51,393 nucleotides of DNA from positions 1-51,393 of the forward strand of contig CAZCND010000001.1 in assembly GCA_964500195.1 (NCBI GenBank). The letters run 5' to 3'. The DNA is from an uncultured Candidatus Saccharibacteria bacterium (GTDB taxonomy: Bacteria > Patescibacteriota > Minisyncoccia > Phycocordibacterales > UBA9973). The translations under genes and the position numbers were made by a program. The first letter of the stretch is position 1; every line of letters begins with the position of its first letter. The notes under the pieces are model-generated. The model saw nothing but the letters and a program-made list of their open reading frames with translations, made no database searches and had not been told where the DNA came from. Positions 5,551 to 51,393 of the stretch are shown in pieces.

Positions 5551-5985
5551 ATGATGAGAGATTTTAAAAGTATTCTAAAAGAAAAAGGGTTCAAGGTAAC
5601 AGATACAAGATTAGATATCCTTGGTGTTTTTTCAAATTATTGTAAACCAATAAACGCAAAATATATTTATAAGATGCTCAAAAATAAAGGAATTAATTTA
5701 GTTACTATATACAGAACTCTCCTCTCCTTTGAAAAAGTAGGAATATTAAAGCGAGCCAATTTAAATCAGGAATCAATTTTTTATGAACTTGTGGGAGATC
5801 ATCACCATCATCATATTGTTTGCTTAAAGTGTAAAAAGGTTTCAAATTTTGATGGATGTAAAGAAGATTCAGATTCATTAATATCAAAAGCACTCAAGCA
5901 AAACAAGGATTTTGATTCTATCTCACATCACTCTTTTGATTTATTTGGTATTTGTAAAAAATGTGCAAAAAATAAAAACCGTTAA
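5551..5985 (+). CDS. zur: Fur-family transcriptional regulator (Zur-like)
   Basis: Winged-helix N-terminus, HHHHH run, and CLKC...CKKC zinc site. Divergent from the znu operon. The ORF track starts at GTG 5542, but TGATATAAT at 5531-5539 makes ATG 5551 (or 5554) the more likely start. Confidence 0.8.
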   Translation: MMRDFKSILKEKGFKVTDTRLDILGVFSNYCKPINAKYIYKMLKNKGINLVTIYRTLLSFEKVGILKRANLNQESIFYELVGDHHHHHIVCLKCKKVSNFDGCKEDSDSLISKALKQNKDFDSISHHSFDLFGICKKCAKNKNR

Positions 5986-6000
5986 TACGGTTTTTATTTT
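5975..6000 (+). terminator. intrinsic terminator after zur
   Basis: AAAACCGT / ACGGTTTT hairpin with the TAA stop codon in the loop, followed by a T run. Confidence 0.7.
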
Positions 6001-6066
6001 TAGAACATTTCTAACCCATATATTTTTATAGATAGAGATATAAAAAATATTTTATTTGTTTAAAAT

Positions 6067-6363
6067 TTAATTTGTCACTGGTTCATTACCAACTGGAGCA
6101 CTTGGATTTTCTTGAGTCTCTCCTTGTGAAGGATTAACCATATTCCTGTTGTTTGTATTACTGTTTCTATTAAAACCTCTTGAATCATTATTATTCATCA
6201 TACGACCACTATCTTGCATCATTCCACCTCTTTCTCCTCCTTTAAAATTCTTTGGACTATTTTTACCTCCAAAAGCACAAACACTTAACGAAATAGAAAT
6301 AATCAATAGGATTATTGTTAACCAAAGTAACAAAACACTATGTTTTTGTGAAAATTCTTTCAT
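6067..6363 (-). CDS. small membrane-anchored Asn/Gly-rich protein, unknown function
   Basis: ORF with one TM helix (VLLLWLTIILLIISISLSVCAF) and a low-complexity tail. The start is taken at the internal MKEFSQKH. Confidence 0.5.
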   Translation of the reverse strand: MKEFSQKHSVLLLWLTIILLIISISLSVCAFGGKNSPKNFKGGERGGMMQDSGRMMNNNDSRGFNRNSNTNNRNMVNPSQGETQENPSAPVGNEPVTN

Positions 6364-6524
6364 CTTTATTAATATTTTAATAATAATATTTTGCAAAATG
6401 CAAAAAAAAATGAGAGACGACTTAAATACTCTCCCTTATATATACGACAGAAGTGGTTGTTTTGGTGCTAAAAATAAATACAAGATTTTTGTTTATACAA
6501 AAAATGATTTTTTATTTTTAAGCC

Positions 6525-6615
6525 TTCTCAAGAGCTCGAACTAGCACTCGACTCTGTGATCCTTTGACGAATAGAACCAATTTGATTCCTTGCCCTGCAA
6601 GGCAGATTAGGGCTC
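6525..6615 (-). pseudogene. decayed copy of the tRNA-Glu 3' half plus its downstream tail
   Basis: Minus strand reads TTGGTTCTATTCGTCAAAGGATCACAGAGTCGAGTGCTAGTTCGAGCTCTTGAGAA. This aligns with tRNA-Glu GGGTTCGATTCCCGGTAGGGTCACCA plus its trailer AGTCGTGCTAGCTCGAGAA. Confidence 0.55.
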
Positions 6616-6656
6616 GGTCAGTATGCCACAGTGATCCTTCTCATGCGATTATTGAT

Positions 6657-6932
6657 TTAATCTTTTGTATAAATAAAAATTCTATGATAGCTACTATTTC
6701 TGATTTTATTTCCATTACTATCTTGATCTGTGTGATAAATATCACAATGTTTACCATCCAATATAATATCGCTCAATATTAGATTATAACCTGATTCAGG
6801 GTGTGGTGGTTTATTTTCTACAATAACATCATTAAAATGTGCTAGTCTTCCATAGATGCCAGCTTCTTTAATTTGATTAGACCAAAATTCTGCACCTTTC
6901 CACACTTCATTTTTAAAATTATTTTCATTCAT
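6657..6932 (-). CDS. hypothetical protein (91 aa)
   Basis: ORF only; no motif recognised. Lies between the intact tRNA-Glu and its decayed 3' copy. Confidence 0.45.
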   Translation of the reverse strand: MNENNFKNEVWKGAEFWSNQIKEAGIYGRLAHFNDVIVENKPPHPESGYNLILSDIILDGKHCDIYHTDQDSNGNKIRNSSYHRIFIYTKD

Positions 6933-8994: not shown

Positions 8995-9444
8995 TTAAAT
9001 TAAAAACATTGGACCTTTATATCCTAGAACATTTAAAATAGTCTTAACTATTATCCAAGAAGTTAAAACAAGTGCAAAACCTTTTATTAAATTACCCATA
9101 ATTCCCTTGGCTTTTTTCTTGTTATCTGGTTTAGCTGACGAAGATAGATATAAAGAACCAGTAAAGATTAAAATAATAACAAAAAGGGGGGTAGCTAATT
9201 TAAGAATAAAAAAATCAATCAGCTTATTAATCATAGCCATAAGCGCATCTATTCCACAAGGATTATCATAATCCCCCGTTGTTTCATTTATAGTACCCTC
9301 ATTACATATCGGCAATAAACCGTGATATTCACTACCATCACTACGGTGACTAGGATAATAGACAGAGGATGTGGCATGAATACAAATTGGAGCCAGTGTT
9401 AGACTTAAGGAAAAAATAATTGGTATAAAAATATTTTTTTTCAT
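8995..9444 (-). CDS. small secreted two-TM membrane protein, VirB2/TrbC-pilin-like architecture (paralogue 5)
   Basis: 149 aa: signal peptide, Cys-containing ectodomain, TM1, loop SSSAKPDNKKKAKG, TM2. Confidence 0.65.
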   Translation of the reverse strand: MKKNIFIPIIFSLSLTLAPICIHATSSVYYPSHRSDGSEYHGLLPICNEGTINETTGDYDNPCGIDALMAMINKLIDFFILKLATPLFVIILIFTGSLYLSSSAKPDNKKKAKGIMGNLIKGFALVLTSWIIVKTILNVLGYKGPMFLI

Positions 9445-9449
9445 AATAA

Positions 9450-10766
9450 TTAATTAAATAATAATTCTAATTGGTTATTTGCCTTATCTATCGCTTCTGC
9501 TTGAGTTAGATTATTAGAAGAAATATTCTCAATCATATCTCTTATTATGATTTCTGACTTACTTTCGTTGGGATCAAGCCAAGACCTAGAAATAATAGCT
9601 GAATTAAAAAATATTTCTAAATAAGAATTATTTTTAGGAGTTTCAGATAATAAACTTCTTAAAACTGGGGGTAAAGAAGAACTAGTACTAATGATTTTAG
9701 ATTTTTCGTTTAATGCCAAACTACCCACAGTACTTACTGTTGCTTGTAAGTTTTTTGAATTTCTATTTACTACAATAGCATAAATTTCACCATAAGTTCT
9801 CTTGAAGTTAGTATCTTTCATCTGGGGTAACTCTGTTACATTAAAACTTAAATTAGGATTAGTGGACTGTATCTTAAACAATTCACTAGCCCTTCCTATA
9901 TAAAAAGTCAATTTACCACTTGTAAACATCTCTAAAGAATTAGATAAAGCTCTATTCCAAGAGTAGTACGGACTAGACATATTTGAAAAAACTAAATAAA
10001 AGTCTAGAACCGCCTGAATAGGAGAAACTGAATATCCAAGAGGGTTATCTTTCAAAAGAGAAGAATAACTTACCTTTCCATTATTTATTTTTTTACTAAC
10101 TATATTATTACCGTTTTGAATCAATAATGTTGCCAAAATATCCTTGGCATGATTTACATTATTAAAATTTCCAAGAGCAATCATGCTTTGACTAATTATT
10201 CCATTTACATCATTTCTTGTAAGTTTTTTGTTTAGGTCAAATAATTCATCCCAAGTTTTTGGGGGATTTAAAATTGAATTATTAGATAATATATCTTTAT
10301 TATAATAAAGGACTAGAGGATCAGATAAAATAGGAAAAGCAAATACACCCTGTTCGTCAAGGTATATTTCAGCTCCATCTATATAAGATGATTTAAAAGT
10401 TTTTTCAGGATAACTTTCATAAGGTATTTTATAAACGAAAGGTTCATTATCTTTAATCATGTCCGTAGTTATTATATAAGCATCAGGTCCTTGTCCTTTA
10501 GCAAAAGCATCTATTAATTCACCCTGGTAAGTTTCCTTATCCTTTTCAACATAATTAACAAACAAACCTTTATTTTCAGAAGCTATTAAATCTTTCGCTG
10601 TTGATATATAAGAAGAAGGCATTGTCCCCCAAATTACGACATTTCCAGAAACACCAAGATCTTTTTCCTTATCACCACCTATTTTTATCAATCCAGAAAA
10701 TATCAATATTGAAAAAACAAAACCCCCAATAAATATTCCCAATAAAATTGTTTGAAAGTTATTCAT
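9450..10766 (-). CDS. membrane-anchored extracellular solute-binding-protein-like protein
   Basis: 438 aa with an N-terminal TM anchor. Length and alternating pattern resemble family-1 (sugar-type) ABC binding proteins, but no cognate permease or ATPase is adjacent. Confidence 0.5.
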   Translation of the reverse strand: MNNFQTILLGIFIGGFVFSILIFSGLIKIGGDKEKDLGVSGNVVIWGTMPSSYISTAKDLIASENKGLFVNYVEKDKETYQGELIDAFAKGQGPDAYIITTDMIKDNEPFVYKIPYESYPEKTFKSSYIDGAEIYLDEQGVFAFPILSDPLVLYYNKDILSNNSILNPPKTWDELFDLNKKLTRNDVNGIISQSMIALGNFNNVNHAKDILATLLIQNGNNIVSKKINNGKVSYSSLLKDNPLGYSVSPIQAVLDFYLVFSNMSSPYYSWNRALSNSLEMFTSGKLTFYIGRASELFKIQSTNPNLSFNVTELPQMKDTNFKRTYGEIYAIVVNRNSKNLQATVSTVGSLALNEKSKIISTSSSLPPVLRSLLSETPKNNSYLEIFFNSAIISRSWLDPNESKSEIIIRDMIENISSNNLTQAEAIDKANNQLELLFN

Positions 10767-31051: not shown

Positions 31052-31101
31052 ATTTTAATCATACCACTGTCTCATAGTGAAAGCGACATTCCAGAGACAC
31101 A

Positions 31102-31133
31102 GGTCGGTCGCTTTCACCAAATTTATCTGCTCC
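31102..31133. repeat. 32-nt direct repeat, copy 1 (distal att-like junction)
   Basis: GGTCGGTCGCTTTCACCAAATTTATCTGCTCC, identical to 40425-40456. Weaker similarity extends about 25 nt further left. An 11-bp hairpin GTGAAAGCGAC/GTCGCTTTCAC (31077-31117) overlaps it. Confidence 0.85.
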
Positions 31134-31555: not shown

Positions 31556-31668
31556 GGTTCGAATTTATACAAAGATAGCAAAAATAACCCTTACAAATTA
31601 AGGCTCAAAATTTTGCTCCGAACTTGCCTCACTAATATGCTACGGCCAATGGGGAGAATGTCCGAGAA
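31556..31668. repeat. junction repeat, copy with 25-nt insert
   Basis: GGTTCGAATTTATACAAAGATAGCAAAAATAACCCTT..AAAATTTTGCTCC | GAACTTG[25-nt insert]GGGAGAATGTCCGAGAAAG. Same arms as 32293-32379. Confidence 0.8.
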
Positions 31669-31695
31669 AGTATGTTGGATAAATGAAAAATAATT

Positions 31696-31929
31696 CTAAT
31701 TTTTAAACCATTCTTTTTGATCTATACCAGATTGCAAAATAATACCTTTTAAAGTTCTAGGTTTAATAGATTTATTTCCATGGAAAGGCACACAAACATT
31801 TCTTAAAATTCCCTTCTGATACCCAACGTAGTAAAAATGACTTGCGTTTGTATAATTAAGCTTAAATCCATTTCCCTTTAAAAAAGATTCTATATCTTTA
31901 AATGTCCAATTAAAAAATCTTTTTGGCAT
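31696..31929 (-). CDS. hicA: HicA-like mRNA interferase toxin
   Basis: 77 aa; FLKGNGFKLNYTNASHFYY...VPFHGNKSIKPRTLKGIILQSGI matches the HicA pattern (GSH..., PxH, ...gtl..Il.q.gi). Confidence 0.65.
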   Translation of the reverse strand: MPKRFFNWTFKDIESFLKGNGFKLNYTNASHFYYVGYQKGILRNVCVPFHGNKSIKPRTLKGIILQSGIDQKEWFKN

Positions 31930-31937
31930 TATTGTTA

Positions 31938-32243
31938 TTACACAGTTGAAAATCCATACATATTTATTAAATATGGAGATTTAATTGGTTTAAGAGAGTT
32001 AATATTTGACCAAAGCTTTTCATATTCTTGATCAGATTGTTGATTTAATGACTGGAAACGTGAACCCTTTATTTTCTTTGCTGATTCAATATATCCATTT
32101 ACTGCTTGAAGTAAATTAAAAAAAGCAAGTTTAGGATCATCACTTGACTCAACAATATTAAATTCAAGAGCCACAGCATACCATGTGTCACCATCTTTAA
32201 AAACTATATATCTAAAGGTTCCCTTTGTTGGTGTATTCATCAT
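31938..32243 (-). CDS. hicB: HicB-like antitoxin
   Basis: 101 aa; the N-terminal FRYIVFKDGDTWYAVALEFNIVESSDD looks like the HicB/UPF0150 fold. Lies 8 nt upstream of hicA, with TGATATAGT 6 nt before the ATG. Confidence 0.55.
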   Translation of the reverse strand: MMNTPTKGTFRYIVFKDGDTWYAVALEFNIVESSDDPKLAFFNLLQAVNGYIESAKKIKGSRFQSLNQQSDQEYEKLWSNINSLKPIKSPYLINMYGFSTV

Positions 32244-32292: not shown

Positions 32293-32379
32293 GGTTCGAA
32301 CTTCGTAAAAGGTAGCAAAAATAATCCTTATAAATAAGGGTTAAAATTTTGCTCCGAACTTGGGAGAATGTCCGAGATG
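32293..32379. repeat. junction repeat, compact copy
   Basis: GGTTCGAACTTCGTAAAAGGTAGCAAAAATAATCCTTATAAATAAGGGTTAAAATTTTGCTCC | GAACTTGGGAGAATGTCCGAGATG. Nested hairpin AGCAAAA/TTTTGCT plus ATCCTT/AAGGGT. Confidence 0.8.
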
Positions 32380-32419
32380 TTATTTTGTAAAATAATAGAT
32401 AAATGATATTATTTAAATT

Positions 32420-32893
32420 ATGAAAACCAATATTTATATAGATGGAAATAATTTATATCGCTCTGCTAAGGAACTTGGTTTTGAAATAGATTATAAAAAG
32501 TTTCGTGTCTGGTTATCTCAAAAATATAATACAAAGAACATTTTTCTATTTATAGGATATCTGGAGAATAGAAAGGAATTTTATAATTATCTTAAAAATT
32601 GTGGTTTTGAATTAATCTTTAAAGAAGCAGTTTTACACGAAGGAAACATTAAGGGAAATTGTGATGCCGAACTTGTATTAAAATCTGTTGATGATTATCA
32701 TTTGAAAAATTTTGATAAATTTATACTTATTTCCAATGATGGAGATTTTGGTTGTCTTGTAGAATTTTTAATAAATAAAAATAGACTAGAGATTATACTC
32801 TCTCCAGATAAAAATAAGTGCTCTATTTTACTTAGAAATAAAACAAATAAAATCTTATACTTAAATGAGATTTATAAAAAATTCTCTAAATAA
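32420..32893 (+). CDS. NYN/LabA-like (PIN-related) domain protein
   Basis: 157 aa with NIYIDGNNLY, CDAELVLKSVDD and ILISNDGDFGCLVEFL acidic motifs of NYN nucleases. Confidence 0.7.
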   Translation: MKTNIYIDGNNLYRSAKELGFEIDYKKFRVWLSQKYNTKNIFLFIGYLENRKEFYNYLKNCGFELIFKEAVLHEGNIKGNCDAELVLKSVDDYHLKNFDKFILISNDGDFGCLVEFLINKNRLEIILSPDKNKCSILLRNKTNKILYLNEIYKKFSK

Positions 32894-33005
32894 AACACCT
32901 AAAAAGAAAAAGCTCCCGGTATGGGCGCACCCATACAAGGATCTCTTTCATAATGATATTAGTATTATAGCAAGCAGGTTGTTAAAGTCAATAGGTTTCG
33001 ATTTG

Positions 33006-33070
33006 GGTTCGAACTTCTACAAAAGGTAGCAAAAATAACCCTTGATAAATAAGGTTTAAAATTTTGCTCC
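33006..33070. repeat. junction repeat, left arm plus core only
   Basis: GGTTCGAACTTCTACAAAAGGTAGCAAAAATAACCCTTGATAAATAAGGTTTAAAATTTTGCTCC, followed by a different right side. That side contains a GCAGGTCGGTCACTTTGAG piece (33145-33163) related to the 32-nt repeat. Confidence 0.75.
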
Positions 33071-33190
33071 CTCGGTCGGTTCAGAAACTTGACCTCTCAA
33101 ATGTTGTAAGGACCTTTGAGCTACTTTTGAAGTGGGATTTGGATGCAGGTCGGTCACTTTGAGTGGATAGAGTGGACACTATAAAAAGAA

Positions 33191-33607
33191 CTAAATAATC
33201 TTATGTTTTTTAAAAGCATTACATCTTTTGCATGCAATTCTTAGATTAGATATATCATTTGATCCAAAACTTTGGGCTGGAACCTTCTTACCATTTTGGG
33301 GTTTCATTTTTCTTAACTTTTTGTTTAATTCATTAGTAGAAAGTGGAATATAATGATCAACATCAAAAACCTTCTCTTTACTGCAATCTTTATGAATATT
33401 TAACTGGCATTTCTTTCCATATTTAGAAACCAGTTTTTTGAAAATATCATTTCTAATTTTATTAAACTCTTCTCTTTTTATCTTAGGATCTCTAAAATCA
33501 AACATCTTACGATATTTTTTCTCAAATATAAGAGCATCACCTTTTGCTAATTTATTTAAAAAAAAATTATAATCTTCTTTGTATTCAAAGATATCCATGA
33601 GCTTCAT
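33191..33607 (-). CDS. HNH endonuclease
   Basis: 138 aa with DVDHYIPLS ... NLRIACKRCNAFKKHK (HNH/His-Me finger). Confidence 0.7.
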   Translation of the reverse strand: MKLMDIFEYKEDYNFFLNKLAKGDALIFEKKYRKMFDFRDPKIKREEFNKIRNDIFKKLVSKYGKKCQLNIHKDCSKEKVFDVDHYIPLSTNELNKKLRKMKPQNGKKVPAQSFGSNDISNLRIACKRCNAFKKHKII

Positions 33608-33663
33608 TTTATAATAATCTCACTATAAAATCTATTAAAAATAATGATTTAGTAGAACAACTA

Positions 33664-33924
33664 ATGCAATTGGTAGATAAGATAGATATTGATGAATTTG
33701 AAGCAAGAGAGAAGATTCAAGAAGAGATAAATAAATACAAGCAGTTTAGCTATGCAGTTCTAGGAAGAGAGACAGAGTTTGATAAAAAAACGATTGAGGC
33801 AGATATGAGGAATTATATAAAGCATGTACTTAAAACGGGTACCAAGGATCAAAAAAGGGAGATTCTGGGGTGTTTAAAGAGTGAGGTGGTGGTGTTAGAT
33901 AAGAAGATTTTACTTAAAAATTAA
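33664..33924 (+). CDS. small hypothetical protein (possible recombinase C-terminal remnant, very tentative)
   Basis: 86-aa ORF. The tail KDQKREILGCLKSEVVVLDKKILL is reminiscent of the extreme C-terminus of large serine recombinases, but no catalytic domain is present. Confidence 0.3.
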   Translation: MQLVDKIDIDEFEAREKIQEEINKYKQFSYAVLGRETEFDKKTIEADMRNYIKHVLKTGTKDQKREILGCLKSEVVVLDKKILLKN

Positions 33925-34625
33925 AATATCACTTGAGTAATTATTCCAAAATCATTTTCTAAAATTTCCTTAATCTTAACCTTATTTTCATTTGGTTTTA
34001 TCTGACAATCTGCAGAAAGACACTCTAAATCTTTCTCATTTAATTTATTAGGAATGATTAGATTAATTTCTAAATCATCCTTTGTGATTTTTATTCCTGG
34101 TTCTATATTTATAAAATACTCATTAAAAATTCTTCCGAGTTCATTATGTGTAAGCTCTTGAATTTCAGAAGCCATTTGATCATATTCTTCTATTTTTTTA
34201 TTAAATTCTTCTTCTAAAATTAAAATTCCACTGGCATGACCAAAACTATTATTCCTATACCTTATAATCTTTTTACACTTTTTTACAATTGGATCACATG
34301 CTTTTAATATATTCAGTAATTCAAAAATAGAACTTTCTGGAAATTCTGATAAGCTCCATATTGTTTTTGATTCTCTATGTAATTTTCTTTTATCTTCAGG
34401 AGATTGTATTAAAACATCATTAAATCTATCTGGCATCCATATTTTAGTTTTAAATATAGTTTGATATATAAAACTCATAAATAGTAAATGATACGCAAAA
34501 AGAGCTAAATGATATGAATTATTATTTTGAGCATAAGTAAATTGTTCTATTAATCCATAAACATAATTTCTCTCTTCTTCACTATCATATTTTATAGAAA
34601 GATAAGAAAAAATAGATGAATTCAT
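33921..34625 (-). CDS. HEPN-like (Rx5H) protein, last gene of the R-M operon
   Basis: 234 aa, predicted mostly helical, with RYRNNSFGHASG matching the HEPN R-N-x-x-x-(x)-H motif. Starts 6 nt after the upstream gene. Confidence 0.5.
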   Translation of the reverse strand: MNSSIFSYLSIKYDSEEERNYVYGLIEQFTYAQNNNSYHLALFAYHLLFMSFIYQTIFKTKIWMPDRFNDVLIQSPEDKRKLHRESKTIWSLSEFPESSIFELLNILKACDPIVKKCKKIIRYRNNSFGHASGILILEEEFNKKIEEYDQMASEIQELTHNELGRIFNEYFINIEPGIKITKDDLEINLIIPNKLNEKDLECLSADCQIKPNENKVKIKEILENDFGIITQVIF

Positions 34626-34631
34626 AAATAA

Positions 34632-35240
34632 TTAAATACGATCAACATTCCCACACTTAGGACAAGTTACTGTTTTACTTCCAAGAGCTGTGAGTAAACT
34701 AATACTTGTGTAATCATTATTTTTTACGAAAAATCCATAACCGCATTTGCTACATTTATGATAGCTATCTAAATATAATCCTCCAACCAAAGAATTGTCA
34801 CACACATCTAAACCAACATGATTAGGAGACACGGTTAGCGGACCGATTGTTTTATTAAGTGATATCTTTTCTTCTTCTAATCTAGATATAGCTTTTTCAA
34901 TTTCCTTTTTTTGTTCAGTTGAACTTTTTTCCAAATCTTTTCTATAAACATCAATCAAGTTATTAATTTTTACTTCTACTTCATTGGCTTGTTTCTCTCT
35001 CTTTTCTATAATAGTCTTCTGGCTAGCAAGAAATTCTTCAAAATTTTTCTTATATTGATCTCTATCAGATTCTAATTTTTCTTTATAATCTTTATTTTGT
35101 CTATAAACTATAATAGTGGCAAAAATCGCTAATACTGTGAAGAGAACAGCTAATGTTCCAACCATTAACCCATATGGATTTGTCCAAAGACTTAATTGCT
35201 GGTTTGTTTTTTCTAATATTTGTATATATTGTTCTTCCAT
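34632..35240 (-). CDS. membrane-anchored coiled-coil protein with C-terminal zinc ribbon, unknown function
   Basis: 202 aa: TM helix GLMVGTLAVLFTVLAIFATIIVY, about 85 aa of K/E-rich heptad-like region, and a C-terminus with CSKC...27 aa...CPKC. Confidence 0.6.
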   Translation of the reverse strand: MEEQYIQILEKTNQQLSLWTNPYGLMVGTLAVLFTVLAIFATIIVYRQNKDYKEKLESDRDQYKKNFEEFLASQKTIIEKREKQANEVEVKINNLIDVYRKDLEKSSTEQKKEIEKAISRLEEEKISLNKTIGPLTVSPNHVGLDVCDNSLVGGLYLDSYHKCSKCGYGFFVKNNDYTSISLLTALGSKTVTCPKCGNVDRI

Positions 35241-35246
35241 ATAATT

Positions 35247-37781
35247 TTATTCCTCCCAAAGCTTACTTATAACTTCCTTGGTTTTTTGTTCATAAATTTC
35301 AATCAGTTTTTTAGATGATTCAACTAATTCTATTTCTTTTTCTATTTTTTCTACAATTTGTTTTTGAATTTCAAGAGGAGGAACAGGAATTTTAATTTTA
35401 TTCAATATTCCTATAGGTAATTGAGGTTGAGCACTACCTGATATAAAATTATTGACTTGTTCATTAAATTTTATAGAGTTGAGGAATAATAATAAAAATC
35501 TTGGTAAAATTTTTTCTAAATTACTTCTCAAAAGTACCATACCAGAATTAATTCTAATATTATCAAAAGATATATCTTCAGAATAATAAGCTGTATTTCC
35601 TATCGTCCCACGTGTAGTTAAAACAACATCATATTTATCGAGTTTTCCCTTTCTAAGAATTTTATCTTTTTCTTTTGTTATAAAATCACAATTTGAAAAA
35701 TTAAAAGTGCCCCTCCTAACATTACTAGTATTTAAAAATAGACAATATCCTTCACTTTTAAAATCTTCCTTTTTAGGATAGTTAACCCCTCTATCACCAT
35801 CTATTATTTGAAACACTTTAGAATCTCCAAGAAACACTTCTTTGTAATTTAGATCAATATCAATTTTAGGTTTCCAATTTTCAGAAATTTGCCTTGCTCC
35901 ATCTATAATTTTTTGATACCCATCTAATTCAGCAACAATTTGCTCTTGAATTTCAAGAGAAGGAAGAGGAAAAGAAAGTCTTCTTAAGTCACTGTTTGAT
36001 AAATGTAATATATTTGCACCTTTAACATATTTTGATAATTCTACTTTTAAAGGAGGGTTACTTATAAGTAATGCTAAGTAGTCTGATAATATATGCTTGT
36101 TTTTTGTTCTAATTACATTTATATCTCCGCCAATTATTACATTATTCTCATTTAATGATCTTGCAACTGCTATCCCCATTGCATCTGCAGTTGTAGTCGC
36201 TGGAACTAAAACATCACCCTTTAATGATTTAATCTTTCCATTAAAATTTGTTGTGCTAAAGATATTTTTTATAATTGGATTATATAATGTATATATTTCA
36301 CCATAATGAATACATTTATTTTCTCCATTCTCTATTAAATCACTTTTTGATAACCCTTGGCCTTTTAGTAATTCAATTTTTTTGTCTTTTTCCAGCTCTT
36401 CAATTTTAACCATTGGCCATTTTGTATTTGAATAATCTTTCACTTCTCTATATCTATCACCAGAAAGATTAAAATCTTCACTTTCTAAAATCTTTTTTCT
36501 CTCTACATATAAAGCAATTTTACTTTCTAATTTTTTACCAGATTTCCATTTTTTAAATATTTCTATTGCTTCTGGAATATCGTTTTTATCTATTGGCCTC
36601 CTTTGTGCACCTAAATTAAATCCATCATTTTCAATCTTAAGAAATAGTATTTCTTTTTTGTTCTTAGCAATCTCATTATCAAATATTAAAATACTCGTTT
36701 TTACTCCTGCATAAGGATTAAACACTCCACTAGGAAGACTGATAACGGCACAAAGGCCATCTTTTACTAGATTTTCTCGAAGTTTCTTGTGTGCTGTAGC
36801 AGATTGAAAAATAATACCTTCTGGGACAATTATACCAGCTCTACCTTTTGGCCTTAAATGATTCATTATATAATCCACAAAGAGAACCTCACTTCTATTT
36901 GATTGAACACTAAATTTACTATGAGTTTTCACTCCACCCTTAGGACTCATAAAAGGAGGATTGGCTAACATCACATCAAACTTCTCATTCCACTTTTCCT
37001 CCATAGTAAGAGTGTCATAATTGTAAATCTTTGGATCTTTAAACTGGTGGAGATACATATTTACCTGTGCAATACGAACCATTCCAGGATCTATGTCATA
37101 TCCCTCAAAATTCTCTATGAGTTTCTTTCTCTGATCTGGAGTAAGAGGCTTTTCATTGTTTTTTTTTCCATCTTTATCTTTTCCATTATGTTGTTCTAAT
37201 ATATGTTTATAAGCACTAATAAGGAATCCACCAGTACCACAAGCAGGATCAAGAACCTTGTCATCCTTTGTCGGATCAACAATCTCAACCATAAAATCAA
37301 TAATATGTCTTGGTGTCCTAAACTGTCCTGCATCTCCTTGACTCCCCATTATAGAAAGAAGGTATTCATAAGCATTTCCAAGTTCTTCAGGGTGAGAATA
37401 GTCAAAATAATTTATTTCTTTCAAGAAAAGCCCTAGAACTTCTGGGGCTCTATATGGAAGAAAAGCTGATTTAAAAATATTTCTAAATAGTGAAGGAAGT
37501 TGTTTTGCTTGAGAGAATTTAATTAGTGCTTCAGAATATAAATTCATTCTTTCTTGATTACCAATACGAGAATCCATAAGTTTAGTCCAAGAATATTTTT
37601 CTAAATCGCCAACAAAGAAAGAGGGCTTACCTCCAACCTTAATGGCTGATTGGTCCATATCATCCATAAACTTATAAATCAAAGCATTTGTTATTTGTTC
37701 TATTTGAGAAGTAGGATTTGGAACAACTCCAACAAGCACTTGGCGAGCACTATCTATATGTCTTTTTGTATCTATGTTCAT
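35247..37781 (-). CDS. hsdM: type I restriction-modification methyltransferase fused to specificity subunit (HsdM-HsdS)
   Basis: N-terminal ~450 aa carry FRTPRHI, DPACGTGGFL (motif I) and ANPPF (motif IV). C-terminal ~390 aa form two TRD-like halves, each ending in an HsdS conserved helix (LPSLEIQEQIVAELDGYQKII; VPPLEIQKQIVEKIEKEIELV). Confidence 0.8.
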   Translation of the reverse strand: MNIDTKRHIDSARQVLVGVVPNPTSQIEQITNALIYKFMDDMDQSAIKVGGKPSFFVGDLEKYSWTKLMDSRIGNQERMNLYSEALIKFSQAKQLPSLFRNIFKSAFLPYRAPEVLGLFLKEINYFDYSHPEELGNAYEYLLSIMGSQGDAGQFRTPRHIIDFMVEIVDPTKDDKVLDPACGTGGFLISAYKHILEQHNGKDKDGKKNNEKPLTPDQRKKLIENFEGYDIDPGMVRIAQVNMYLHQFKDPKIYNYDTLTMEEKWNEKFDVMLANPPFMSPKGGVKTHSKFSVQSNRSEVLFVDYIMNHLRPKGRAGIIVPEGIIFQSATAHKKLRENLVKDGLCAVISLPSGVFNPYAGVKTSILIFDNEIAKNKKEILFLKIENDGFNLGAQRRPIDKNDIPEAIEIFKKWKSGKKLESKIALYVERKKILESEDFNLSGDRYREVKDYSNTKWPMVKIEELEKDKKIELLKGQGLSKSDLIENGENKCIHYGEIYTLYNPIIKNIFSTTNFNGKIKSLKGDVLVPATTTADAMGIAVARSLNENNVIIGGDINVIRTKNKHILSDYLALLISNPPLKVELSKYVKGANILHLSNSDLRRLSFPLPSLEIQEQIVAELDGYQKIIDGARQISENWKPKIDIDLNYKEVFLGDSKVFQIIDGDRGVNYPKKEDFKSEGYCLFLNTSNVRRGTFNFSNCDFITKEKDKILRKGKLDKYDVVLTTRGTIGNTAYYSEDISFDNIRINSGMVLLRSNLEKILPRFLLLFLNSIKFNEQVNNFISGSAQPQLPIGILNKIKIPVPPLEIQKQIVEKIEKEIELVESSKKLIEIYEQKTKEVISKLWEE

Positions 37782-37789
37782 AAATTATT

Positions 37790-40366
37790 TTAATTCATAT
37801 AAGTATTAAGTGATACATAATCCCTTACATAACTTGGAACAACCTCTCTAAAACCATTTAATCTTTGATACTCCTCGAAATCAAAAGCTGGGCAATTATA
37901 AAATCTCGCTAATTCATTACTCTTTATTATATCGCGAACTTCTTCATCTACAATATATGCTTTGAAAAAGCTTTTAACTGAAGCGTAATGTTCCTGATCT
38001 ACTGGATTTATTTCGGTGAATTTACTCCATTCTGATTCAAGTAAATCATCTTTCATTTCAAAACTATCTTTTTGACCAAAAGCTACTTGTAGAAATTCTC
38101 TTACACTTACATTTCTATCAAGAGAAAAAGCTTTTTTGATTTTATCTAAATTTAAGAAATGGCTTGGCTTATTAAATATATGAGTTTTTGTATATTCTTC
38201 AGCTCCTATTTCATCTCCATTATTCCAAAGGTTAGACAATACTTCATTTGATAACACATCCTCTTGAACAGCTCTTTTGAATCCTTCTCTATCTATTCTC
38301 ATACCACTTTCTCCAATAACTGATTCATTTATTGTTTTTATGTTATCATTTGTAGCAAGATCAATATTACCTTCCCACTTATCTATACCAGTAGGTCCAT
38401 CTCCACCAATACCTGTATCTATAGGTGGTTCTATTTCTGTTGTTCCTCCAGGTCTAGGTAATCTTATTTTTTCATCATAAGGAAATTCATTCTCGAAATA
38501 TTCACAGGTAGCAAAATAGTCGAAGAATTTAAACTTTTCTTTATTTTTAGATACAATATCATTATTTTCGTAATCTCTATATTCAAAAGTATATTTACGA
38601 GTTCCTCTACCTTTTATCTGAACAAAGTCAGAAGGACTAAATACAGGTCTCATAAGAGCTATGTTTAAAAGATCCTGACAATCGTAACCAGTAGTCATCA
38701 TTCCAACAGTTACAGCCACACGAGTTTTACTTGAATCATATCCCTCTGGTTTCTTAACCTTTCCACCAAGTTTATTATTAAAATCTGAAAAGTTGATAGT
38801 CATTTGCTGAGCATCCTTAACCTGAGAAGTTACTTGCATAGCAAAATCTGATTCATAATATAAGTCAGGCCACTTTTCCATAGCCAACTTATTTAAAATA
38901 TTTGTTATTTTTGCAGCATGATTTTGAGATACACAAAAAACAATAGATTTACCAAAAAGTTTTACTCCTAAACTATCAGCAACAGGATCAAGAAATCCAT
39001 TATCAAGAAATGCCTTACACATAACCACATTAGTTTCTTCATTAAAAAGTTTCTTTTCATATTGTTTTTCTGTAAAGATTTCTTCAGAGATATCTCCATT
39101 TTCAATATCTTTCTTTTTTATAGATAGCCCTTGATCAGAAAGTAATTGAGTGGTTATTTCTGTTCGAGCATCTATAACAACAGGATTAATAAGAAATCCA
39201 TCTTTCACACCAGAGAGAAGATCATATCTAAATGTAGGTTCTCCTGAATCACAGCCAAAAGTTTTATATGTATCTAATAACTGTCTTTTTTCAAACTCTC
39301 TTTGTGTGTCTAATCCTTTGTCATCAAAACCTCTCAAATAATCTTTAGGTGTCGCAGTTAATCCAAGTTTATAACCTACAAAATACTCAAACACAGCACG
39401 AGAATTTCCACCAATAGAACGATGTGCTTCGTCTGAAATAACTAATTCAAAATCTGTAGGAGAAAATTCCTTTTTATATCTATCACCAGCTTGAAATGTT
39501 TGTATTGTAGAAACAACAATGTGGGCATTAGTCCAAGAATCTCGAGCATCCTTATATATCACACAGTTATAATCTTTTCCTAAATAATTTTTAAATGCTT
39601 TATATGCTTGATCTTCGAGTTCTAATCTATCGACTAAAAATAAAATTCTGCGAGCATTACCAGATTTCAAAAACAATCGAATAACTCCAGCTGAAATCAA
39701 TGTCTTACCCGTACCTGTGGCCATTTCAAAAAGAAATCTATTTTTATTTTCTTTTGCACTATTTTGAAGAGCCTTAATTGCTTGAACCTGATATGGTCGC
39801 ATTTGTTTAAGATTATTTTCTTTAAGAAATTTATTGCGAGTACTCTCATCTAAAAACATTGGATCACTGGAGTAATTGGGCATCTGTGATTCAATAATGT
39901 AATTCTCATCAATAGAAGTGTTAGCGAGCTCTAATGGGTTTGGAATATAAGTCTCATATTGGGTTATAGATTCTTGGGTAGGAAACCTAGAAATAGTATC
40001 AGGGTTTCCATGTTTTGTGTCCCAGAAATAATGAATATTCCCATTTGAAAGAATAATAAAGCGAGCTCCAACATTACGAGCATATACTTTTGCTTGTTCT
40101 TTAGCCGAAAGTGGATTAATGGATTCTCTTTTAGCCTCAACAACCACAAGTGAACGACCATTTTTATCTAATAAAAGAAAGTCAATAAACCCTTGTCCTT
40201 GATTTTCAAAATCATCTCCAAGTTCTTTATATCTAACACCTGGCTCAAGTTTTATATTTGCTTTACCTTTTTCAGAATCTTCAAATCTCCACCCTGATTC
40301 TTCAAGAAGTTTATTAATTTTTATTCTTGCAGAAGCTTCTTTATTGGAATTCATATATAAAGTCAT
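37790..40366 (-). CDS. hsdR: type I restriction enzyme R subunit
   Basis: 858 aa: N-terminal PD-(D/E)xK-type nuclease region FIDFLLLD..VVVEAKRE, SF2 motif I EMATGTGKT, motif II VISDEAHRS, and a long C-terminal helical domain. Confidence 0.85.
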   Translation of the reverse strand: MTLYMNSNKEASARIKINKLLEESGWRFEDSEKGKANIKLEPGVRYKELGDDFENQGQGFIDFLLLDKNGRSLVVVEAKRESINPLSAKEQAKVYARNVGARFIILSNGNIHYFWDTKHGNPDTISRFPTQESITQYETYIPNPLELANTSIDENYIIESQMPNYSSDPMFLDESTRNKFLKENNLKQMRPYQVQAIKALQNSAKENKNRFLFEMATGTGKTLISAGVIRLFLKSGNARRILFLVDRLELEDQAYKAFKNYLGKDYNCVIYKDARDSWTNAHIVVSTIQTFQAGDRYKKEFSPTDFELVISDEAHRSIGGNSRAVFEYFVGYKLGLTATPKDYLRGFDDKGLDTQREFEKRQLLDTYKTFGCDSGEPTFRYDLLSGVKDGFLINPVVIDARTEITTQLLSDQGLSIKKKDIENGDISEEIFTEKQYEKKLFNEETNVVMCKAFLDNGFLDPVADSLGVKLFGKSIVFCVSQNHAAKITNILNKLAMEKWPDLYYESDFAMQVTSQVKDAQQMTINFSDFNNKLGGKVKKPEGYDSSKTRVAVTVGMMTTGYDCQDLLNIALMRPVFSPSDFVQIKGRGTRKYTFEYRDYENNDIVSKNKEKFKFFDYFATCEYFENEFPYDEKIRLPRPGGTTEIEPPIDTGIGGDGPTGIDKWEGNIDLATNDNIKTINESVIGESGMRIDREGFKRAVQEDVLSNEVLSNLWNNGDEIGAEEYTKTHIFNKPSHFLNLDKIKKAFSLDRNVSVREFLQVAFGQKDSFEMKDDLLESEWSKFTEINPVDQEHYASVKSFFKAYIVDEEVRDIIKSNELARFYNCPAFDFEEYQRLNGFREVVPSYVRDYVSLNTYMN

Positions 40367-40424
40367 TTTCCCACATTTTTACCTTTTTTACAATTATATA
40401 GCAAAAGAGACCTTCCCAGACGTG

Positions 40425-40456
40425 GGTCGGTCGCTTTCACCAAATTTATCTGCTCC
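40425..40456. repeat. 32-nt direct repeat, copy 2 (tRNA-proximal att-like junction)
   Basis: Identical to 31102-31133. Positions 40453-40456 are the last 4 nt of tRNA-Asn. Confidence 0.85.
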
Positions 40457-40524
40457 CCGGGTAGGGATCGAACCTACGACCTTAGAGTTAACAGCTCTCT
40501 GCTCTACCGCTGAGCTACCGGGGA
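40453..40524 (-). tRNA. tRNA-Asn (anticodon GTT)
   Basis: Reverse complement TCCCCGGTAGCTCAGCGGTAGAGCAGAGAGCTGTTAACTCTAAGGTCGTAGGTTCGATCCCTACCCGGGGAG, with anticodon loop CTGTTAA. No CCA is encoded. Confidence 0.9.
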
Positions 40525-40574
40525 ATGTTGTTTTGTTTATTAAAACAGCAAGAATATCATACCAAAAATATTCC

Positions 40575-40615
40575 AAAAAAGCAAAACCCTAAATCTTTGA
40601 GGTTTTGCTTTTTTT
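40575..40615. terminator. bidirectional intrinsic terminator
   Basis: GCAAAACC / GGTTTTGC hairpin flanked by A6 and T7 runs, after the stop of the 183-aa gene. Confidence 0.7.
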
Positions 40616-40621
40616 CTGGGA

Positions 40622-41173
40622 TTAAGCGGTTTTTTCTTTTTTAAATTGACGCATTATAACTCGATAGACAACAACTATTCCTAAAATCAAAATTATAGTC
40701 AAAAACCACTGCCAGAAAGTATTTGGTAAAAATCCATAGCTAGAATTTTTTACATTATTATTTTGATTGTTGTAAGCACCATAAGCTGAGGCGGTCATAT
40801 AATTAAGATAAGCATTATTGGTTCCATTATAATTATAAGCTTGATATTCAGACAAATGATTGTTGGTTGTATTTCCATTATTAGTCAAATAACCGGTTGT
40901 AGTTTTTACAACTGGGACATTAGACCCACCAGTGTAGTAATAATAGTTATTGATAACAGTGGTTCCCTCTTCTGTCTTTTTTGTTTCTTTCTTTACTGGT
41001 TCTGATGAATAACCAGCATATTGATAATATTGGTAAGATGGATTATTGGAAGAAAAAGAAGAGGAAGAGTAAGAGTAAGGATTATTTGTGGCAGCCATAG
41101 CGTTTCCAGCAACAAACATCAAAAAAAATACAGTTCCAGCAACTATTAAGTTTTTTAAATTTAAATTAAACAT
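40622..41173 (-). CDS. secreted low-complexity (S/N/Y/T-rich) protein with a sortase-signal-like C-terminus
   Basis: Signal peptide ending AMA, then a repetitive polar region. C-terminus is LPNTF, then hydrophobic helix WQWFLTIILILGIVVVY, then basic tail RVIMRQFKKEKTA. TGATATAAT lies 6 nt before the ATG. Confidence 0.6.
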   Translation of the reverse strand: MFNLNLKNLIVAGTVFFLMFVAGNAMAATNNPYSYSSSSFSSNNPSYQYYQYAGYSSEPVKKETKKTEEGTTVINNYYYYTGGSNVPVVKTTTGYLTNNGNTTNNHLSEYQAYNYNGTNNAYLNYMTASAYGAYNNQNNNVKNSSYGFLPNTFWQWFLTIILILGIVVVYRVIMRQFKKEKTA

Positions 41174-41336
41174 TCTTGTATTATATCACACATAAAACTA
41201 TTTTGTCAAGCCCAAACATACGGGTAAATTTTAAAAATGAATTTTTTACTATAAATGAATATCAATTCCAAAAACCTTTATTTTATAATGGTTATTATAT
41301 AAAAAATTAGACAAAGTTTTTAAAACGTGTCAGTAT

Positions 41337-41966
41337 TCACAAGGCCAGACCTTGGTTTAAAAAGGATTTGCGGTGAATTTTAGTAATACCATATTTTTTG
41401 ATGGCTTCATAATGTGCCCGTGTGCCATAACCTACATTTTTTTCAAAACCATAATTTTTATATACCCTTCCATAATCTTCCATGATTTTATCTCTCGAAA
41501 CTTTGGCCACTATAGACGCCAAAGATATTATTGAAATTAATTCATCCCCTTTTATTAAAGTTTCTTGATTCAAATATTTTTCTTCTGCCCTAAGTCCCCC
41601 ATCGAGATAAACTAAGACATGATTTATATCTTTATCTTTTGTTATTTTTTCTAAAGAATTATTTAGAGCTTTCTTAATAGATGAAACGATGCCAAACTTA
41701 TCAATCATCTCATTCGAAACCAAACTAACAGCAAAATCACAAACACCATCATCTTTTCTTTTTTTTAAATAATCAAACCATTTTTGTCTCTGTTTTTTTG
41801 TTAACTTTTTTGAGTCTCTAATTGGAAGTCCAGTTTCTTCTTTAAACTCTGCAATTAAATTTTCGCTCTCTTTGGCTAAAAACAAAAAAGCTGAAACAGC
41901 CACTGGCCCAGCTATTGGACCTCGGCCAACTTCATCTATTCCAACTATGTATTTAATATTTTTCAT
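41337..41966 (-). CDS. rnhB: ribonuclease HII
   Basis: VGIDEVGRGPIAGPVAV, RDSKKL and ASIVAK motifs. Confidence 0.88.
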   Translation of the reverse strand: MKNIKYIVGIDEVGRGPIAGPVAVSAFLFLAKESENLIAEFKEETGLPIRDSKKLTKKQRQKWFDYLKKRKDDGVCDFAVSLVSNEMIDKFGIVSSIKKALNNSLEKITKDKDINHVLVYLDGGLRAEEKYLNQETLIKGDELISIISLASIVAKVSRDKIMEDYGRVYKNYGFEKNVGYGTRAHYEAIKKYGITKIHRKSFLNQGLAL

Positions 41967-50716: not shown

Positions 50717-50894
50717 CTTTTTTGAATAGGTTTTTAAGTATTCTTTCTTTTGTTCCGTCCATGGGTCTTTGCCTCATGTCATCATGTTTTTATGTCTATA
50801 TCATGAACAGACAATTATGTGCTCAATTGAGGCACATAATATCGCCTTTTACCCCTCACTACTTTAATAAAAAAGTGGTAAGGGATTTTTTCAA

Positions 50895-51393
50895 ATTGAA
50901 TTATTCCACGAACAGCTTCCGCTACCCGTGCCTTGTTACGACTTATTCCCTGTCACCGAGCTTACTGTAGGCCCTCCTTCTGGAGAGACTTCGAGCACTC
51001 CCGGCTCCCTTGAATTGACGGGCGGTGAGTACAAGACTTGAGAACGTATTCACCGCGGTATATCTGACCCGCGATTACTAGTAATTCCAACTTCATGGGG
51101 TCGAGTTGCAGCCCCCAATCCGAACTGGCGCAATTTTTCTTAGGATTAGCTCAGAGTTACCTCGTCGCAGCCCGTTGTAATTGCGATTGTATTATGTGTG
51201 TAGCCCAAGGTATCAAGGGACATGCTGACCTGGCGTCATCCTCCCCTTCCTCCCAGCCCTCTGGATTCTAATTCACTATGAGATTCATAATAAATTAAAG
51301 GATAATAATATTTTGTAAAAACAAAACTTAAAATCCAGAGGGCTGGGCAGTCTCGTGTGACACTTATAACACACGATGAGGGTTGCGTTCGTT
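50895..51393 (-). rRNA. rrs: 16S rRNA gene, 3' ~500 nt (continues past the window end)
   Basis: Reverse complement contains AACGAACGCAACCCTC (E. coli ~1100), GAATACGTTCTCAAGTCTTGTACTCACCGCCCGTCAA (~1380-1405), AAGTCGTAACAAGGCA (~1495), and helix 45 ACGGGTAGC-GGAA-GCTGTTCGT. The exact 3' end is uncertain. Confidence 0.92.
51259..51340 (-). other. 82-nt AT-rich insertion in the 16S helix-40 loop
   Basis: The conserved helix arms CCCAGCC (51252-51258) and GGCTGGG (51341-51347) normally enclose a short loop. Here they enclose 82 nt that start and end with the complementary CTCTGGATT / AATCCAGAG. Confidence 0.8.

Follow-up and report, generated by a model that had tools for sequence, protein, structure and literature searches.

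A type I restriction-modification module with a candidate HEPN guard and a putative slot for defense genes in candidate-phyla bacteria

Known Systems and the Locus Under Study

The rlo genes of Campylobacter are variable genes inside hsd loci, and both HEPN genes in restriction-modification (R-M) operons and defense hotspots are already known. The HEPN RNase PrrC is silenced by the type I enzyme EcoprrI and freed when the Stp protein of phage T4 inhibits restriction (PMC3710099, PMC12707154). At least 16 R-M-linked HEPN clades with a predicted guard logic (PMC3710099) and 'RM guardian' systems (PMC12707154) have been described, and the immigration control region and hotspot 37 of Escherichia coli are defense hotspots (PMC12707154). 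An engineered fusion of the M and S subunits of EcoKI, together with HsdR, restricts lambda approximately 1000-fold (PMC3510504). Here we analyze a type I R-M operon with two additional small genes, encoding a 202-amino-acid (aa) membrane protein and a 234-aa protein that is likely a divergent member of the HEPN group. The operon lies in a stretch of 51,393 nucleotides (nt) from an uncultured Candidatus Saccharibacteria bacterium (positions 1 to 51,393 of contig CAZCND010000001.1, GenBank assembly GCA_964500195.1), the whole of which is referred to below as the window.

Patescibacteria have tiny genomes with few recognized defense systems besides R-M, and the layering of their immunity is poorly known. 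Comparison of the window with related operons leads us to favor, with moderate confidence, the reading that the locus is a mobile type I R-M module with a PrrC-like HEPN guard and a slot for defense cargo, and not a four-gene system with a dedicated pair of accessory proteins. Judged by gene order, the conserved core of the module consists of hsdR, a fused hsdM-hsdS gene (hsdMS), and the terminal HEPN gene.

The Type I R-M Operon

The four genes of the operon, from upstream to downstream, are as follows.

37790..40366, minus strand: hsdR, type I restriction subunit, 858 aa (open reading frame [ORF]; Pfam, PADLOC, NCBIfam)
35247..37781, minus strand: hsdM-hsdS fusion, 844 aa (ORF; Pfam, PADLOC)
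34632..35240, minus strand: 202-aa membrane coiled-coil/zinc-ribbon protein, putative slot cargo (ORF, alignment, AlphaFold2 model)
33921..34625, minus strand: 234-aa predicted divergent HEPN-domain protein, terminal gene (ORF, alignment, AlphaFold2 model)

The ORF listing reproduced exactly the four frames of a first-pass annotation of this contig, with the same coordinates and the same gaps of 8, 6, and 6 nt. A terminator scan of positions 33000-41500 found two weak sites, compared with 3.1 expected from shuffled sequences. Since the sole minus-strand candidate (37634-37620) is a mere 5-bp stem, weak and located within hsdMS, no convincing internal terminator was found, in agreement with that annotation. 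The four genes are probably co-transcribed as a compact type I R-M operon with two extra genes, and the original description of the locus as such an operon is supported.

HsdR matches the Pfam models ResIII (E-value 2.5e-41) and HSDR_N_2 (1.7e-8) and the PADLOC model REase_I (2.3e-58); its match to the NCBIfam EcoAI/FtnUII family (1.6e-64) falls under that family's own cut-off. The protein joins an N-terminal nuclease domain to a superfamily 2 (SF2) motor and is EcoAI/FtnUII-like. The fusion protein matches N6_Mtase (3.2e-57) and, twice, Methylase_S (7.1e-27), as well as the PADLOC models MTase_I (3.9e-104) and Specificity_I (1.5e-39). It is a gamma-class N6-adenine methyltransferase, with an NPPF motif, followed in the same polypeptide by two target-recognition domains (TRDs). 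The hallmarks of type I systems, that is, an HsdR nuclease with an SF2 translocase, an HsdM methyltransferase, and a specificity part with two TRDs, are all present, and only the separate HsdS subunit of the classical M2S1 enzyme is missing, as M and S share a single ORF both in the window and in 11 related operons. HsdR and the fused HsdM-HsdS thus constitute a type I, 'Type IMS'-like R-M system.

In having M, S, and two TRDs in one polypeptide and a separate HsdR, the system resembles the engineered EcoKI Type IMS enzyme (PMC3510504). In contrast to that construct, the lineage described here is natural, with 68-80% identity over several candidate phyla, and possesses an EcoAI-like HsdR and an obligate HEPN companion. 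The window HsdR is 68-76% identical to HsdR of the 11 related operons, and the HsdM part is 72-80% identical between loci, compared with 27-61% for the HsdS (TRD) part. Phase-variable shuffling of hsdS by the neighboring recombinase was considered and rejected, as the window contains no second hsdS copy; the only internal repeat of hsdS is the usual duplication between its two halves.

Linkage and Divergence of the HEPN Gene

Seventeen loci carrying the HEPN gene were compared, namely all 10 genome loci with a close homolog, two metagenome contigs, four distant loci picked solely for their long contigs among relatives 23-30% identical, and the window. The genome loci belong to metagenome-assembled genomes (MAGs) of Paceibacterota, Moraniibacteriota, Gracilibacteria, Saccharibacteria, and Kaiserbacteria and to MAGs labeled Gammaproteobacteria and Draconibacterium. 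All 17 loci have the order hsdR (~850 aa), hsdMS (~660-850 aa), zero to two further genes, and the HEPN gene, which is always the last one; the gaps range between -13 and +55 nt, a single one exceeding 21 nt. The coupling of the 234-aa gene to R-M, originally proposed for the window, thus extends to every locus compared.

The HEPN proteins are 23-60% identical to that of the window, whereas HsdR and HsdM retain 68-76% and 72-80% identity, respectively, across the loci. Distances between HEPN and HsdR have a Mantel correlation of 0.03, compared with 0.72 for HsdR and HsdM, and co-evolution of HEPN with HsdR and HsdM as a sign of a complex was rejected for lack of correlation. From these comparisons the HEPN gene appears to be both obligatory in this R-M lineage and hypervariable, which suggests a component exposed to an arms race.

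A gene of this kind could also be an addiction toxin that stabilizes a mobile R-M system by post-segregational killing, and not a phage-triggered guard. Toxin-antitoxin systems commonly use a HEPN domain as the toxin (PMC3710099), the module is mobile and adjoins recombinases or integrases, and the island around it carries HicAB. We nevertheless regard addiction as distinctly unlikely: the operons have no cognate antitoxin gene (MNT or other), the HEPN gene directly following hsdMS in three of them (L009, L103, and L104), and R-M systems themselves already give addiction. The fast diversification of HEPN against a conserved R-M core, together with fusions to TIR domains, fits a phage arms race better.

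Like the HEPN RNase gene prrC in the type IC EcoprrI locus, which is proposed to encode a nuclease latent until restriction is disabled, the 234-aa gene is embedded in an hsd operon, in 17/17 loci. However, the N-terminal part of PrrC is an ABC-ATPase and its gene is flanked by hsd genes, whereas the 234-aa protein has no ATPase match, is always encoded by the last gene, and belongs to another HEPN clade. Because it lacks the ATPase domain, it is not a member of the PrrC/RloC family. Small Rx4-6H HEPN proteins of the AbiU2, AbiJ, ApeA, EC042_2821, DUF4145, and Ymh clades likewise occur in conserved R-M neighborhoods, with a predicted role in multi-pronged defense; the statement of the first-pass annotation that HEPN genes in R-M loci are established agrees with this survey (PMC3710099). 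Unlike these clades, the 234-aa family is in none of Pfam, NCBIfam, PADLOC, and PHROGs and is tied to a single hsdR plus fused hsdM-S lineage.

Two further observations concern the spread of the module. In the Kaiserbacteria chromosome OY969413.1 (L010, 9569-10297), what is left of a decayed copy is an hsdMS piece of 142 aa and, after it, a HEPN piece of 98 aa. The R-M/HEPN modules in the MAGs labeled Gammaproteobacteria and Draconibacterium (L004 and L005) are near-identical to those of several candidate-phyla MAGs, reflecting either horizontal transfer between phyla or binning errors.

The 234-aa Protein

The segment RYRNNSFGH occupies residues 122-130 of the 234-aa protein, and E97, K118, R124, N125, G129, and H130 are invariant in 54 close homologs (43-70% identity). 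A profile search of 1.84 billion representatives retrieved 337 relatives, mostly of 220-290 aa, 151 of them at E <= 1e-10. Among 113 aligned members of this wider family, R124 never varies, and N125, H130, E97, and H46 reach a conservation of at least 90%; the consensus LVxxRNxxAHANG contains the canonical HEPN motif RNxxAH, to which the window subfamily adds one residue. The pattern of R, a polar residue, and H after three to five further positions is retained in 270 of 289 family proteins. The Rx4-6H signature of HEPN domains is thus represented by R124-x5-H130, invariant in the 54 sequences, the polar residue after the arginine by N125, and the upstream acidic residue by E97, while the Ex3[KR] form is approximate only, the family consensus being E-x4-R.

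Among the 113 wider-family members, 27 match PF18735 (HEPN_RiboL-PSP) at E <= 0.01, the best at 4.4e-6, four match HEPN_MAE_28990, and one matches HEPN_Swt1. The window protein itself has nothing significant in Pfam, PADLOC, NCBIfam, or PHROGs, and because the matches come via its wider-family relatives, its link to HEPN_RiboL-PSP is transitive; its own tie to these relatives is strong (151 representatives at E <= 1e-10). We therefore treat PF18735, the nearest Pfam model, as a relative of the 234-aa protein and not as its family. None of the 17 operons contains an L-PSP or ParB gene; RiboL-PSP-HEPN proteins have been described as fused to L-PSP or encoded in operons with ParB, and not as R-M-linked (PMC3710099), whereas the 234-aa family is.

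The AlphaFold2 model of the 234-aa protein is all-helical (mean confidence score pLDDT 92.6). The helix 97-106 begins with E97, the helix 111-127 ends with R124 and N125, H130 lies in the loop 128-137, and the helix 138-158 follows. This placement fits the HEPN layout, in which the motif is located at a helix end and in the following loop (PMC3710099). Approximately residues 160-234 form a C-terminal helical extension. On the strength of the alignments and the model, we assign the 234-aa protein with good confidence to divergent HEPN-domain proteins, and its conserved residues suggest that it is probably a metal-independent RNase. The HEPN call of the first-pass annotation therefore gains support from the invariant R-N-x3-G-H residues, the PF18735 matches of 27 of the 113 relatives, and the helical position of the motif. 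The fold and profile check that had been proposed for it gave a divided answer, as the wider-family profiles reach HEPN whereas Foldseek retrieved no HEPN structure. An interferon-gamma match in a profile search of PDB sequences was discarded as spurious.

Alternatively, the 234-aa protein could lack catalytic activity and serve this R-M lineage as a helical subunit or a regulator, its R...H motif playing another role. The Foldseek result and the missing direct Pfam match of the window protein are in line with this, and non-catalytic HEPN-like domains, for instance MtlR, do exist (PMC3710099). However, R, N, H, and the E ahead of them vary little or not at all in a family whose identity otherwise drops to ~20%, a pattern expected of catalytic residues, and we give this alternative little credence.

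TIR domains are present in three of the 113 wider-family members. Two wider-family HEPN proteins (P0151 and P0215) have Cys-rich, zinc-ribbon-like C-terminal tails, and some members (P0128, 784 aa; P0340, 552 aa) are much longer, with uncharacterized extensions.

A Putative Cargo Slot ahead of the HEPN Gene

What lies between hsdMS and the HEPN gene differs from locus to locus.

L009, L103, L104: empty, the HEPN gene directly after hsdMS (complete operons)
L001: CBASS cyclase (1.4e-78) and NucC effector (3.7e-75)
L002: AbiJ (1.5e-22)
L008: Shedu SduA (1.1e-62)
L003: Ymh-type HEPN and a 67-aa protein (9304-9507)
L005, L007: DUF3800
L105 (5147-5998), L106: DUF2806
L004 (9436-9978), L006 (2007-2558): unknown proteins of 180 and 183 aa, respectively
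Window, L091, L093: 202-aa protein

From this distribution, the best reading of the position is a cargo slot for varying defense genes, which would be translationally coupled to the R-M genes. The last codons of hsdMS, encoding KLWEE and the stop (TGGGAGGAATAA and close variants), are conserved in the window (35247-35262), L002, L091, L103, and others. The same end (cttTGGGAGGAATAA) places a Shine-Dalgarno-like GGAGG 6-8 nt ahead of the start codon of the next gene, so that the hsdMS 3' end is predicted to be a built-in expression signal for the slot cargo. A recombination site at the slot boundaries was considered and rejected, as only this coding 3' end of hsdMS is conserved.

The rlo loci and the E. 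coli hotspots resemble the slot in exchanging one defense gene for another at a fixed site linked to type I R-M genes. In contrast to them, the slot is a single intra-operon position, flush within a few nucleotides and fed by a Shine-Dalgarno sequence in the hsdMS stop region. Such a slot could be mined, a gene found between hsdMS and HEPN being a defense candidate. The slot genes without defense annotation, those for the 180-, 183-, and 67-aa proteins and DUF2806, are candidate new defense genes by position, and DUF3800 is a defense candidate of the same sort.

The slot comparison bears directly on the sensor/effector pair proposed in the first-pass annotation, with the 202-aa protein as the sensor and the 234-aa HEPN as the effector, backing up restriction as a two-gene module. 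The genes are indeed adjacent, with a gap of 6 nt in the window and 2-8 nt in L091 and L093; one entry of the HEPN review, Plim_2023, joins a HEPN domain to a zinc ribbon with two transmembrane segments (PMC3710099), and the Cys-rich tails of two wider-family HEPN proteins might be read in the same way. However, none of the 10 genome HEPN loci carries a 202-aa homolog and none of the 80 loci from a metagenome scan for the 202-aa family carries the HEPN gene, so the two do not co-occur in any of these 90 loci and are adjacent only in the window, L091, and L093. The 202-aa proteins of these three loci are the most alike in the family (72-100%), which fits a single acquisition. Fourteen of the 17 HEPN operons hold other cargo or none, approximately 60 of the 63 non-redundant 202-aa loci lack the HEPN gene, and no fusion protein matches both profiles. 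As the HEPN gene is retained with CBASS, AbiJ, Shedu, DUF3800, DUF2806, or nothing before it, the pair is unsupported, and we consider it very improbable. The neighborhoods largely refute it and suggest that each of the small genes is an addition to restriction in its own right. The other part of the original expectation, adjacency to defense genes, holds for both families.

The 202-aa Membrane Protein Family

The 202-aa protein has one transmembrane helix, a coiled coil of ~85 aa, and a C-terminal Cys4 zinc ribbon. The most conserved stretch of its family is the N-terminal YIxILEKTNQQLSLWxNPYG, just before the transmembrane helix, which is followed by a basic stretch, the coiled coil, and CxxCG[FY]GF...TCPKCG. 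The hydrophobic segment after NPYG has a mean Kyte-Doolittle hydropathy of 2.74 across the family, and the AlphaFold2 model (pLDDT 77) contains a continuous helix 22-105 and then a helix 108-131. C163, C166, C193, and C196 are each at least 90% conserved; the two CxxC pairs of the first-pass annotation are thus real, and only their spacing is trivially different, 26 residues instead of 27. Two conserved CxxC knuckles on beta-hairpins, as in zinc ribbons, are present, the AlphaFold2 strands around both pairs being of low confidence, and Pfam zinc-ribbon models match the C-terminus at E-values of 0.02-0.7. Lysines and arginines average 1.0 before and 4.6 after the transmembrane segment, and eight of 50 family members have an extra N-terminal hydrophobic segment. 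From this charge bias and the extra segments, the N-terminal motif is predicted to be outside the cell, and the coiled coil and zinc ribbon in the cytoplasm.

Searches of Pfam, PADLOC, NCBIfam, and PHROGs gave nothing significant for the 202-aa protein, only coiled-coil and zinc-ribbon noise, which bears out the earlier statement that its architecture belongs to no named defense family. The PADLOC match to LeoBC (8e-5) was rejected as low-complexity noise, since it covers only the transmembrane and coiled-coil stretch. Residues 161-198 weakly match phrog_6422 (Lar-like restriction alleviation; E-value 0.011), and the family consensus weakly matches SieB (0.0038). Foldseek found no match to the model in PDB at E <= 0.001. 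Matches of PDB sequences to C2H2 zinc-finger arrays were rejected because the protein has no HxxxH; they are repeat artifacts due to the 28-residue spacing of the CxxC pairs. SieB, Sie2009-type proteins, and Imm are, like the 202-aa protein, small single-pass membrane proteins among defense genes, but they lack the conserved N-terminal motif and the cytoplasmic Cys4 zinc ribbon and have no significant sequence or fold similarity to it. Pattern scans of IMG/VR viral contigs found neither the 202-aa nor the HEPN family, and a phage origin of the two families was rejected on this basis.

The metagenome scan yielded 80 loci of the 202-aa family, 59 of them non-redundant, and loci fetched later raise the non-redundant set to 63. 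Of 47 upstream neighbors, 41 point in the same direction as the gene of the 202-aa homolog, and the median gap is 13 nt. Clustering of neighbors with jackhmmer identified DNA methyltransferases as the only recurrent neighbor, and a hidden conserved partner was rejected accordingly. Among 30 loci with a flank of at least 2.5 kb, 12 have a methyltransferase within three genes, whereas 4.6% are expected (binomial 4e-9; the expectation derives from two methyltransferases among 254 genes on the same contigs, and the loci are not fully independent).

The contexts include three kinds of type II operon, in which the 202-aa homolog follows an N6_N4 methyltransferase and a MutH-type nuclease, an N6_N4 methyltransferase and a PD-(D/E)xK-like protein, or a D12 methyltransferase, RE_AlwI, and a 227-aa protein. 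Type III Mod-Res operons and an adjoining type IIG enzyme were also found, and in two classical split type I operons the homolog lies between hsdM and hsdS (L062, ~9523-10419; L087, ~5748-6701), a separate instance of the family inside an hsd operon. Other neighbors are Druantia DruE (7.6e-182), a SpbK-like TIR protein, and a Hhe/PDC-S37-like helicase-nuclease. These neighborhoods indicate that the family is a defense-island resident with a strong preference for the tails of R-M operons and without a fixed protein partner. In one locus (L101), a cluster of NYN, GIY-YIG, and DUF2726 genes follows the 202-aa homolog.

The position directly downstream of R-M genes of types I, II, III, and IIG, mostly co-directional and with short gaps, could mean that the 202-aa protein is an R-M accessory, which tethers R-M enzymes or incoming DNA where DNA enters through the membrane or moderates restriction when a mobile R-M system reaches a new host. 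The homologs between hsdM and hsdS and the weak Lar-like match of the zinc ribbon point the same way. Against this, the partner enzymes are mutually unrelated, which makes a specific contact unlikely, the homologs also occur beside DruE, SpbK-like, and Hhe-like genes, and the Lar match is not significant. In addition, the gene sits in a slot that otherwise houses autonomous systems, and many loci have no methyltransferase nearby (18 of the 30 with adequate flank, within three genes). An accessory role is possible but, in our view, unlikely. We favor an autonomous role because the slot is shared with self-contained systems and the family keeps company with unrelated R-M enzymes.

Proposed Model and Its Implications

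By analogy with PrrC, the 234-aa HEPN protein would be a latent, dimeric, metal-independent RNase, silenced by the HsdR/HsdM-S complex or by its own C-terminal domain. When phage anti-restriction proteins disable restriction, the RNase would be released and would stop translation, acting as a second line of defense. Recombination between related operons would place self-contained defense genes into the slot. With lower confidence, we suggest that the 202-aa protein may be an autonomous membrane-level defense, which would either keep incoming DNA out or cause abortive infection. The abortive route could involve oligomerization through the transmembrane helix and coiled coil, with the zinc ribbon as a cytoplasmic sensor or nucleic-acid binder. 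The 202-aa protein would thereby complement restriction rather than signal to the HEPN protein.

Several points weigh against the reading of the locus as a mobile R-M module with a HEPN guard and a cargo slot. The RNase activity, the latency, and the trigger of the HEPN protein are all things that we infer, and the missing co-variation of HEPN with HsdR and HsdM could mean that there is no physical complex. As to the domain assignment, the match of the wider-family consensus to PF18735 (E-value 1.7e-5, 25.2 bits) is under the Pfam gathering score of 28.4, and neither the window protein nor its subfamily consensus matches a Pfam HEPN model. Foldseek comparison of the 234-aa model found no HEPN structure in PDB (best E-value 1.5; Csm6 at rank 49, TM-score 0.27) or in BFVD (best E-value 1.8); as small helical bundles are hard for this method, the failure weakens the HEPN assignment but does not exclude it. 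At the slot, the operon comparison revealed no conserved site at the junction of cargo and HEPN, no mobile-element ends, and no mechanism of cargo exchange, and since the junction has no conserved site, homologous recombination between related operons is a route that we infer. The 18 loci of the 202-aa family without a nearby methyltransferase are also unfavorable, as are three distant members that lie after gyrA. Finally, the 17 HEPN and 63 202-aa loci are few and phylogenetically non-independent, and they came from pattern scans and were annotated by a crude table-11 ORF caller.

In the literature searched we found no description of this HEPN family, of the slot, or of the 202-aa family. Three elements appear undescribed: a hypervariable, unannotated family of HEPN proteins that accompanies a natural HsdR plus HsdM-S lineage, a one-position slot within an operon, and a membrane zinc-ribbon family of R-M operon tails. 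A bolder combination would make the junction the plug-in site of a modular immune operon widespread in candidate phyla. In it, HEPN would be the shared last-resort executioner that guards both R-M and the plugged-in system, and the 202-aa protein would found a new membrane-anchored, R-M-associated defense class, which senses or obstructs phage DNA entry via its outward motif and acts via its zinc ribbon. We hold this combination to be rather unlikely. As the underlying ideas are established, the advance would be incremental unless the shared-executioner or membrane-sensing model is true. Nonetheless, HsdR plus HsdM-S with an obligate, unannotated HEPN protein offers a compact model for guardian RNases without the ATPase of PrrC, and the 202-aa family is a promising candidate for a novel single-gene defense or R-M accessory function.

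Mobility and Surroundings of the Module

The following features lie next to the operon or bracket it.

33664..33924, plus strand: large serine recombinase remnant, C-terminal 86 aa, running toward the HEPN gene and sharing 4 nt with its 3' end
40452..40524, minus strand: tRNA-Asn(GTT), immediately upstream of hsdR (ARAGORN; Rfam tRNA, 66.3 bits)
40418..40456: 39-nt direct repeat, left copy, abutting the 3' end of tRNA-Asn
31095..31133: 39-nt direct repeat, right copy, 92% identical to the left copy

The recombinase remnant is 43% identical (E-value 2e-19) to residues 359-439 of a 440-aa recombinase of L003 with Resolvase, Recombinase, and Zn_ribbon_recom domains. Intact recombinase genes converge on the HEPN gene and overlap its 3' end in L003 and L007, and others are found close to it in L004, L005, and L105. 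Genes for a tyrosine integrase and a TrwB-like coupling protein come after the HEPN gene in L109. The 39-nt repeats bracket 9.3 kb that contain the R-M operon, the recombinase remnant, and HNH, NYN, and HicBA genes. Judging from these features, the segment looks like an integrated island, with tRNA-Asn as its probable integration landmark and the element itself now decayed. The module would have arrived on a large-serine-recombinase element and become fixed beside tRNA-Asn.

The remaining genes of the bracketed segment are the following.

33191-33607, minus strand: HNH endonuclease (Pfam HNH, 5.2e-6)
32420-32893, plus strand: NYN/LabA-like nuclease (Pfam NYN, 9.9e-17)
31938-32243, minus strand: HicB-like gene
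31696-31929, minus strand: HicA toxin (Pfam HicA, 5.3e-11)

An intergenic element of ~90 nt, GGTTCGAA...GGTAGCAAAAATAACCCTTATAAATAAGGG...TTTTGCTCCGAACTTGGGAGAATGTCCGAGATGTTAT, with an internal hairpin, occurs three times (31556-31675, 32293-32383, and 33006-33075) and separates these small toxin-like genes. It has no match in Rfam; it may mark cassette boundaries or be a terminator/promoter module. At the far end of the window, the minus strand of 50894-51393 encodes the 3' part of a bacterial 16S rRNA gene, which runs off the window end.

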